Sequence record: PP274704.1
Source: Escherichia phage ECp13
Length of the DNA stretch: 64,000 nucleotides
Direction: 5' to 3' (one strand)
Shown here: one piece after another, positions 8,162 through 8,905 of the stretch
Position numbering within the stretch: the stretch's first letter is position 1
How the letters are laid out: every line of letters begins with the position of its first letter
Translations under genes and position numbers: made by a program
The notes under the pieces: model-generated
What the model saw: the letters and a program-made list of their open reading frames with translations, nothing else
Told to the model about the DNA's origin: nothing
Database searches by the model: none

Positions 8162-8403
8162 TGTCTGAACAAACTATTGAACAAAAATTGTCTGCTGAAA
8201 TCGTAGCTCTGAAATCTCGTATTCTTGATACGCAGGACCAGGCGGCTCGTCTGATGGAAGAATCCAAAATTCTGCAAGGAACTTTGGCTGAAATCGCTCG
8301 TGCAGTAGGTATCACTGGCGATACTATCAAAGTTGAAGAAATCGTTGAAGCTGTCAAGAATCTTACTGCTGAATCTACTGATGAAGCAAAAGATGAAGAA
8401 TAA
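8161..8403 (+). CDS. 57A: tail fibre assembly chaperone gp57A
   Basis: 80 aa; [15 protein letters not shown]... matches recalled T4 gp57A. Confidence 0.9.
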
Positions 8404-8804
8404 TGGAATTTAAAGACTTTTCAACGGGTCTTTATGTAGCAGCTAAGTTTTCAGAATTAACACTTGATGCGCTGGAAGAACTCCAGCGCTCTTTACGTGT
8501 TCCTAATCCAGTTCCTAGAGAAAAAATTCATTCGACCATATGTTATTCAAGAGTAAATGTTCCGTATGTTCCATCGAGTGGAAGTTTTGAAGTAGCTTCT
8601 TCTGGACATTTAGAAGTATGGAAAACGCAAGATGGATCGACTCTTGTACTTGTGTTAGATTCTGAATATCTGCGCTGTCGACACATGTATGCGCGGGCAC
8701 TAGGTGCTACACATGATTTTGATGATTACACACCGCATATAACATTGTCTTATAATGTTGGGCCTTATCATTTAGCGGTGATGTACAAATTCCGGTCGTA
8801 TTAG
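8403..8804 (+). CDS. 57B: 57B / Acb1-like 2H phosphoesterase, apparently C-terminally truncated
   Basis: Two HxT/S motifs (HSTICY, HITLSY); 133 aa against recalled 152 aa in T4; alternate-frame tail continues to 8857. Confidence 0.7.
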
Positions 8805-8845
8805 ATCGTGAATATAAAGAGCCTCTTAAACTCGATTGGGCAGAT

Positions 8846-8905
8846 GATTTAAAATAATTTCACAAAGTTGTTTACATGCTGATGAGGTAGTGATACTATT
8901 ATCTC
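8846..8905 (+). repeat. direct repeat copy A (early promoter cassette) flanking the ipI-locus gene
   Basis: GATTTAAAATAATTTCACAAAGTTGTTTACAT...GTGATACTATTA repeated at 9176-9235. Confidence 0.75.
8870..8899 (+). promoter_or_regulatory. early promoter
   Basis: -35 GTTTACA, 17-bp spacer, -10 TACTAT. Confidence 0.65.

Follow-up and report, generated by a model that had tools for sequence, protein, structure and literature searches.

Truncation of the anti-CBASS gene acb1 (57B) by a single-base deletion in the genome record of Escherichia phage ECp13

Gene Content and Genomic Setting

The window analyzed here, a stretch of 64,000 nt from sequence record PP274704.1 (Escherichia phage ECp13), belongs to a T4-like phage of the genus Tequatrovirus. 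No phage record identical to the window was found, and the nearest ones, KNP5 and KNP1, share approximately 98.2% identity with it over 25 kb. The region of interest contains gene 1, 57A, 57B (acb1) and a small internal head protein (ip) gene (Table 1), and the same gene order was observed in Ec_O157kw, EO1, T4T and KNP5. The location of acb1 downstream of 57A is conserved in Tevenvirinae, and was found in these four phages as well as in 15 further contigs. In the window, the stop codon of 57A overlaps the start codon of acb1 (TAATG), and the ip gene occupies the position of T4 ipI. In addition, the primers cacatattacagaagctggattgc and ggaagcagaaattgcaatagca, which come from a published study (PMC13577387), were seen by eye in the window, flanking acb1 on either side.

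Table 1. Coordinates of the features discussed, counted from the first base of the window
Feature	Position	Strand	Remarks
Gene 1 (dNMP kinase)	7436-8161		
57A (tail-fibre chaperone)	8161-8403	+	Intact; PF17594 GP57; upstream neighbour of acb1
57B/acb1 ORF, truncated	8403-8804	+	133 aa; stop TAG 8802-8804
Deletion site in acb1	8763-8764	+	CC run, CCC in relatives; last correct codon is 121 (Pro)
Stranded ancestral 3' end of acb1	8765-8857	+	Now in the -1 frame; last 30 codons and stop
PeSL-type candidate cassette, copy 1	8842-8910	+	-35 TTTACA 8871-8876; -10 TACTAT 8894-8899; stem-loop 8880-8909
Internal head protein (ip) gene	8930-9187	+	85 aa; "Ip5" or "internal head protein" in relatives
PeSL-type candidate cassette, copy 2	9172-9240	+	-35 9201-9206; -10 9224-9229
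trna.4-like membrane protein gene	9258-9443		
acb2 (vs.4), cyclic-nucleotide sponge gene	18850-19116	+	Intact; PDB 7UQ2 Vs.4, E = 1.9e-57, residues 1-88

The truncated gene is the known T4 gene 57B/acb1 and represents no new gene family or mechanism. Once its reading frame is restored, its product shows 100% identity to 57B of T4, T4T, T2 and many other phages, and 498 records are at least 99% identical to it (tblastn). The naming of this protein in public records is misleading, as many RefSeq and GenBank entries call it an "RNA ligase", a label that presumably goes back to the 2H (LigT-like) fold, and few name it an anti-CBASS protein or a phosphodiesterase.

Two other differences between the window and KNP5 were noted in passing. 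The anaerobic ribonucleotide reductase gene nrdD is a single ORF of 605 aa in the window (36666-38483) and is split into two CDS in the KNP5 RefSeq record (34021-34821 and 34858-35838), and therefore nrdD in that record is either disrupted or differently organized. The 171-aa ORF at 10121-10636, in a variable region downstream of trna.2-like genes, matches KNP5 over its first 64 residues only (the KNP5 ORF has 98 aa), and a 171-aa gene lies at the equivalent position in contig JAWROZ010000011.1.

Candidate Early-Promoter Cassettes around the ip Gene

The 3' ends of acb1 and of the ip gene lie within a direct repeat, as had been noticed in the initial annotation for the last codons of the alternate acb1 frame. 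The two copies are 69 nt long and 83% identical, the first 36 nt or so being nearly identical. Each copy starts within the last four codons of its gene, 57B or ip, and takes in the terminal D/E-D-L-K-stop; the ip product ends in EDLK. Two features described in T4-type phages are relevant to their interpretation: the early-promoter consensus of PST/T4, TTTACW N17 TAYWAT (Comeau et al., 2014, PMC4122927), and the promoter-early stem-loop (PeSL) cassettes (Arbiol et al., 2010, PMC2839356; PMC4122927). Both copies contain a match to TTTACW-N17-TAYWAT, made up of TTTACA, a 17-nt spacer and TACTAT (8871-8899 and 9201-9229), and preceded by an A/T-rich region; in copy 1, this A/T-rich part overlaps the last acb1 codons. 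In each copy a stem-loop covers the -10 region and is followed by a Shine-Dalgarno sequence and an ATG. The stems occupy the same place and differ in sequence (TGATGAG/CTCATCA in copy 1 vs. ATAGGGT/ACCCTAT in copy 2), and both fold more stably than shuffled sequences (-17.9 kcal/mol, z = -3.4, and -16.9 kcal/mol, z = -2.9, respectively). The third full copy, at 39690, shows no such excess of stability over shuffled sequences (z = 0.05).

The genomic context is likewise that of PeSL cassettes, as the gene between the window copies varies from one relative to another. In T4T, ipI (PF11634-type) lies between the same two cassettes that enclose the 85-aa Ip5-like gene in the window, and in other contigs one to three different small genes are found there; the exchange of ipI for an Ip5-like gene is as expected for cassette-mediated gene swapping. 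Thus, the repeat fits a pair of PeSL-type candidate early-promoter cassettes flanking a swappable ip gene, and we rejected its interpretation as a novel element, given its agreement with the published cassettes (PMC4122927, PMC2839356). The window repeat differs from the T4T cassettes in extending 14 nt further into coding DNA, which explains why the unrelated acb1 and ip proteins share their last residues (DLK); these shared ends look like a recombination scar left by ip-gene swapping. The repeat has no bearing on the frameshift in acb1.

Similar elements are found elsewhere in the window. The promoter core 19-mer TTTCACAAAGTTGTTTACA has six matches with up to three mismatches, compared with 0.09 expected by chance, and further PeSL-type cassettes (TTTCACAAAGTTGTTTACA followed by TACTAT) were located at 39690-39708, 11903, 27589 and 53734. 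Just upstream of one of these early-promoter cassettes, the unit CCCTTCTTATCGTT is repeated in tandem between genes (39640-39690), in a tract 14 bases longer than in KNP5.

Disruption of the acb1 Reading Frame

The truncated ORF clearly belongs to the Acb1 family, as it scores 176.5 bits against PF23474 (Acb1), for which the cut-off is 27, and covers positions 1-122 of the 144-position profile. The frame-restored protein raises the score to 202.7 bits and covers the whole profile (1-144), and a complete domain in one frame is therefore missing from the record. The remainder is found in the -1 frame, which has a stop codon at 8753-8755 and is then open for 34 codons, from 8756 to a TAA at 8855-8857. 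A DNA alignment with six relatives (Ec_O157kw, EO1, KNP5, T4T, CHD16UKE1 and BYEP02) places the lesion precisely, since positions 8760-8764 of the window read GGGCC and the relatives have GGGCCC, or GGACCC in the case of EO1. As the deposited sequence reads, the C3 run that immediately follows codon 121 has lost one base, and this 1-bp deletion breaks the acb1 frame.

Restoring the missing C yields a protein of 151 aa. The T4 annotation of 152 aa includes one extra upstream ATG, coding for an N-terminal Met, which is absent from the window, and consequently the numbering of Acb1 in the window equals T4 numbering minus 1; the break after Pro121 falls after Pro122 of T4. Residues 1-121 of the truncated product are authentic Acb1, identical to those of T4 gp57B and encoded at the same locus (1, 57A, 57B, ip gene), whereas residues 122-133 are frameshift junk unrelated to the T4 protein. 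The stranded tail carries the last core beta-strand, E141, W147 and the lid (145-152, T4 numbering), all of which are left untranslated in the window. The frame-restored protein also matches the structures of Acb1 from Erwinia phage FBB1 (PDB 7T26/7T27) with E = 4e-62, and the alignment with 7T26 runs through the tail (...VVLDREY.E.L.L.W.D), as does the profile match.

These results bear out what the initial annotation had proposed from the letters alone, namely a 57B ORF of 133 aa with two HxT/S motifs (HST at residues 43-45 and HIT at 112-114), truncation by a frameshift, an alternate frame open from about 8756 to 8857 with an Acb1-like C-terminus, and a fused product of about 150 aa. Three causes had been offered there, and they did not fare equally: the 1-bp deletion was retained, the 2-bp insertion was ruled out by the DNA alignment, and a genuinely shorter allele was rejected on account of homolog lengths and C-terminal conservation, as described below. 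Of the two findings that would have refuted the proposal according to that annotation, homologs ending where the 133-aa ORF does and a tail unlike Acb1 C-termini, neither was obtained.

Predicted Consequences for the Protein

Acb1 is a 2H phosphoesterase that degrades the cyclic di- and trinucleotide signals of CBASS, and it is built around six central beta-strands (Hobbs et al., 2022, PMC9117128). The catalytic tetrad consists of H44, T46, H113 and T115, the bases of the substrate stack on Y12, W74, F107 and W147, E141 reads the N6 of adenine, and a lid made up of residues 145-152 closes over the substrate (PMC9117128). In the AlphaFold model of T4 Acb1 (pLDDT 89.7), strands span residues 11-17, 45-50, 63-76, 79-86, 113-117 and 127-142, and a terminal helix spans 148-151; the strand at 127-142 and this helix both lie beyond the frameshift.

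The 133-aa product therefore presents a mixed picture. Both catalytic HxT motifs are retained, and so are three of the four base-stacking aromatics (Y12, W74 and F107 in T4 numbering), whereas the sixth core strand (T4 residues ~127-142), E141, W147 and the lid are lost. As these structural elements are missing, the product is probably inactive, misfolded or unstable, that is, the product of a null allele.

Real Mutation or Sequencing Artefact

Six substitutions separate acb1 of the window from that of T4T, one of them in the stranded tail, and none changes an amino acid when read in the ancestral frame. Since every difference is synonymous, the lesion is either very recent or an artefact. We favor a real and very recent 1-bp deletion in the C3 run that makes acb1 a null allele, to which we assign a probability of roughly 0.6. 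In such a phage, translation would leave the correct frame after Pro121, add 12 unrelated residues and stop at 8802-8804, and the last 30 ancestral codons would persist, perfectly conserved, in the -1 frame.

The main competitor, clearly less probable and nevertheless to be taken seriously, is that acb1 is intact at 151 aa in the phage and that base-calling or consensus building lost one C of GGGCCC. No kind of error is commoner in deposited phage genomes than the single-base indel, and the site is a homopolymer run within a palindrome; a base-calling or assembly error would equally leave the protein encoded by each half of the gene otherwise unchanged. The C run, however, is only three bases long, and a technology that misses such a run should have broken several of the longer A/T runs: the 53.8 kb aligned to KNP5 contain 348 homopolymer runs of at least five bases, and none of them is frameshifted in coding DNA. 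In addition, among the 115 KNP5 ORFs that have a counterpart in the window at 85% identity or more, acb1 is the only one truncated; the others have intact C-termini, and nrdD, split in KNP5, is whole in the window.

The acb1 deletion is also the only indel that changes the net frame in coding DNA relative to KNP5 (~54 kb). The other indels are located in the T-run of a terminator (27577), between a Shine-Dalgarno sequence and its ATG (36193), in the intergenic tandem repeat (39661) and at diverged ends of alignment blocks (24704 and 53820). A generally error-prone assembly was accordingly rejected, as no further coding frameshifts or truncated ORFs were found in comparison with KNP5.

The uniqueness of the deletion is a further point in favor of an artefact. 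A 71-nt query centred on the deletion (8735-8805) was searched against 50,697 phage records, and none of the 502 records that match it does so at 100% identity or carries the deletion; among the matches listed (60 of the 502), all are 98.6% identical and span 72 bases against the 71 of the window. The mutant 25-mer is absent from IMG/VR, metagenome contigs and genome contigs, with the wild-type 26-mer occurring three times in IMG/VR, and the gene-product index has no entry for the exact 133-aa product. The 1-bp deletion allele of acb1 is previously unrecorded and a singleton in the collections searched.

Relatives of the phage itself were sought in the same way. A look-up by the exact gp1 and Ip proteins found no sibling assembly of the window phage, and acb1 is intact in the nearest contig it returned, which shows 99.57% identity. 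A lineage-private 33-mer of the window is absent from three collections, and a 1.36-kb stretch with three private SNPs reaches at best 99.6% identity among phage records.

A genuinely shorter functional Acb1, in which the 133-aa protein is the intended one and still degrades cyclic nucleotides, would be in keeping with the retention of both HxT motifs and of Y12, W74 and F107, but it is very improbable in view of the homologs. A search of 5.8 billion proteins returned 76 matches, of which 69 are 148-164 aa long; not one stops at residue 133, the shorter ones are not cut at that point either, and most of the 76 align with the 133-aa query only to about residue 121, the 12 new residues matching nothing. 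In an alignment of 31 sequences reaching down to 32% identity, every homolog extends past the frameshift position, with a conserved strand and an E-x-x-L motif; a Glu (T4 E138) and a Leu (L143) are nearly invariant. The lost segment, with its core beta-strand, E141, W147 and lid, is conserved down to this level of identity. Of the catalytic residues, the two His and the second Thr do not vary in this alignment, and the first Thr hardly does. Moreover, with the out-of-frame tail still matching T4 at 100% identity, there has been no time for adaptation.

Programmed -1 frameshifting, transcriptional slippage or separate translation of the tail might be invoked to restore a full-length or two-piece Acb1, given that programmed shifts most commonly run in the -1 direction required here and that 34 codons of the tail frame are open. 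Such recoding is hardly credible: all relatives encode Acb1 in a single frame, and no long A/T run lies at the deletion site. Programmed frameshifting and reinitiation were rejected, as no X_XXY_YYZ slippery heptamer occurs in 8403-8802 and the tail frame has no ATG, GTG or TTG start codon.

Acb1 Loss, Acb2 and Guard Systems

A real and recent null mutation, the reading preferred over sequencing error, would be compatible with what is known about the gene. It has been reported that acb1 is non-essential on Escherichia coli K-12 and matters only under CBASS (bioRxiv 10.1101/2025.11.20.689424), and the viability of a T4 delta-acb1 mutant is on record in the literature. As the gene is dispensable on hosts without CBASS, a null mutation could arise and persist during propagation. 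The loss of acb1 may even be favored where the host has a guard system, such as type II Panoptes, that responds to the activity of Acb1.

Other lesions in acb1 offer a comparison. According to a published study (PMC13577387), phage Bas43, which has a natural nonsense mutation in acb1, escapes Panoptes of types I and II, and acb1 point mutations arise in Bas35 phages that escape the type II system. Similarly, among the 60 listed of 1470 matching records, we found that acb1 of CHD16UKE1 (MZ234030) has a net loss of 2 nt with local substitutions near codon 30 and that acb1 of BYEP02 (OR757454) is disrupted by a 77-bp tandem duplication. These cases resemble the window in being independent small lesions of acb1 in otherwise intact Tevenvirinae genomes, and differ from it in the position and type of the lesion, that of the window being a 1-bp deletion at codon 122.

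It is conceivable, though unlikely, that the deletion is not only real but was selected, the lineage having shed Acb1 to escape a type II Panoptes-like guard, which fires when its decoy cyclic nucleotide is degraded, while keeping Acb2. If such selection did take place, this would be the second guard-driven loss of an anti-defence gene in the wild, after Bas43. As the Acb2 sponge gene is intact in the window, the anti-CBASS capacity of the phage would be reduced rather than abolished.

If the deletion is real, the window phage would represent a natural acb1-null, acb2-positive Tequatrovirus. It would be expected to resist guard systems triggered by Acb1 and to suffer more from CBASS systems that use signals poorly bound by Acb2. 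Such a phage would be relevant to host-range prediction and to the choice of therapy phages, and would add one data point for the loss of anti-defence genes under guard-system pressure. Should the deletion prove to be an artefact, the present analysis marks a record from which an incorrect 133-aa protein would otherwise be propagated.

An ORF of 92 aa at 19116-19394, just upstream of regB, has a single PDB match, chain A of 9wiw (109 aa), which is labelled 'Endoribonuclease' (E = 5.9e-38).
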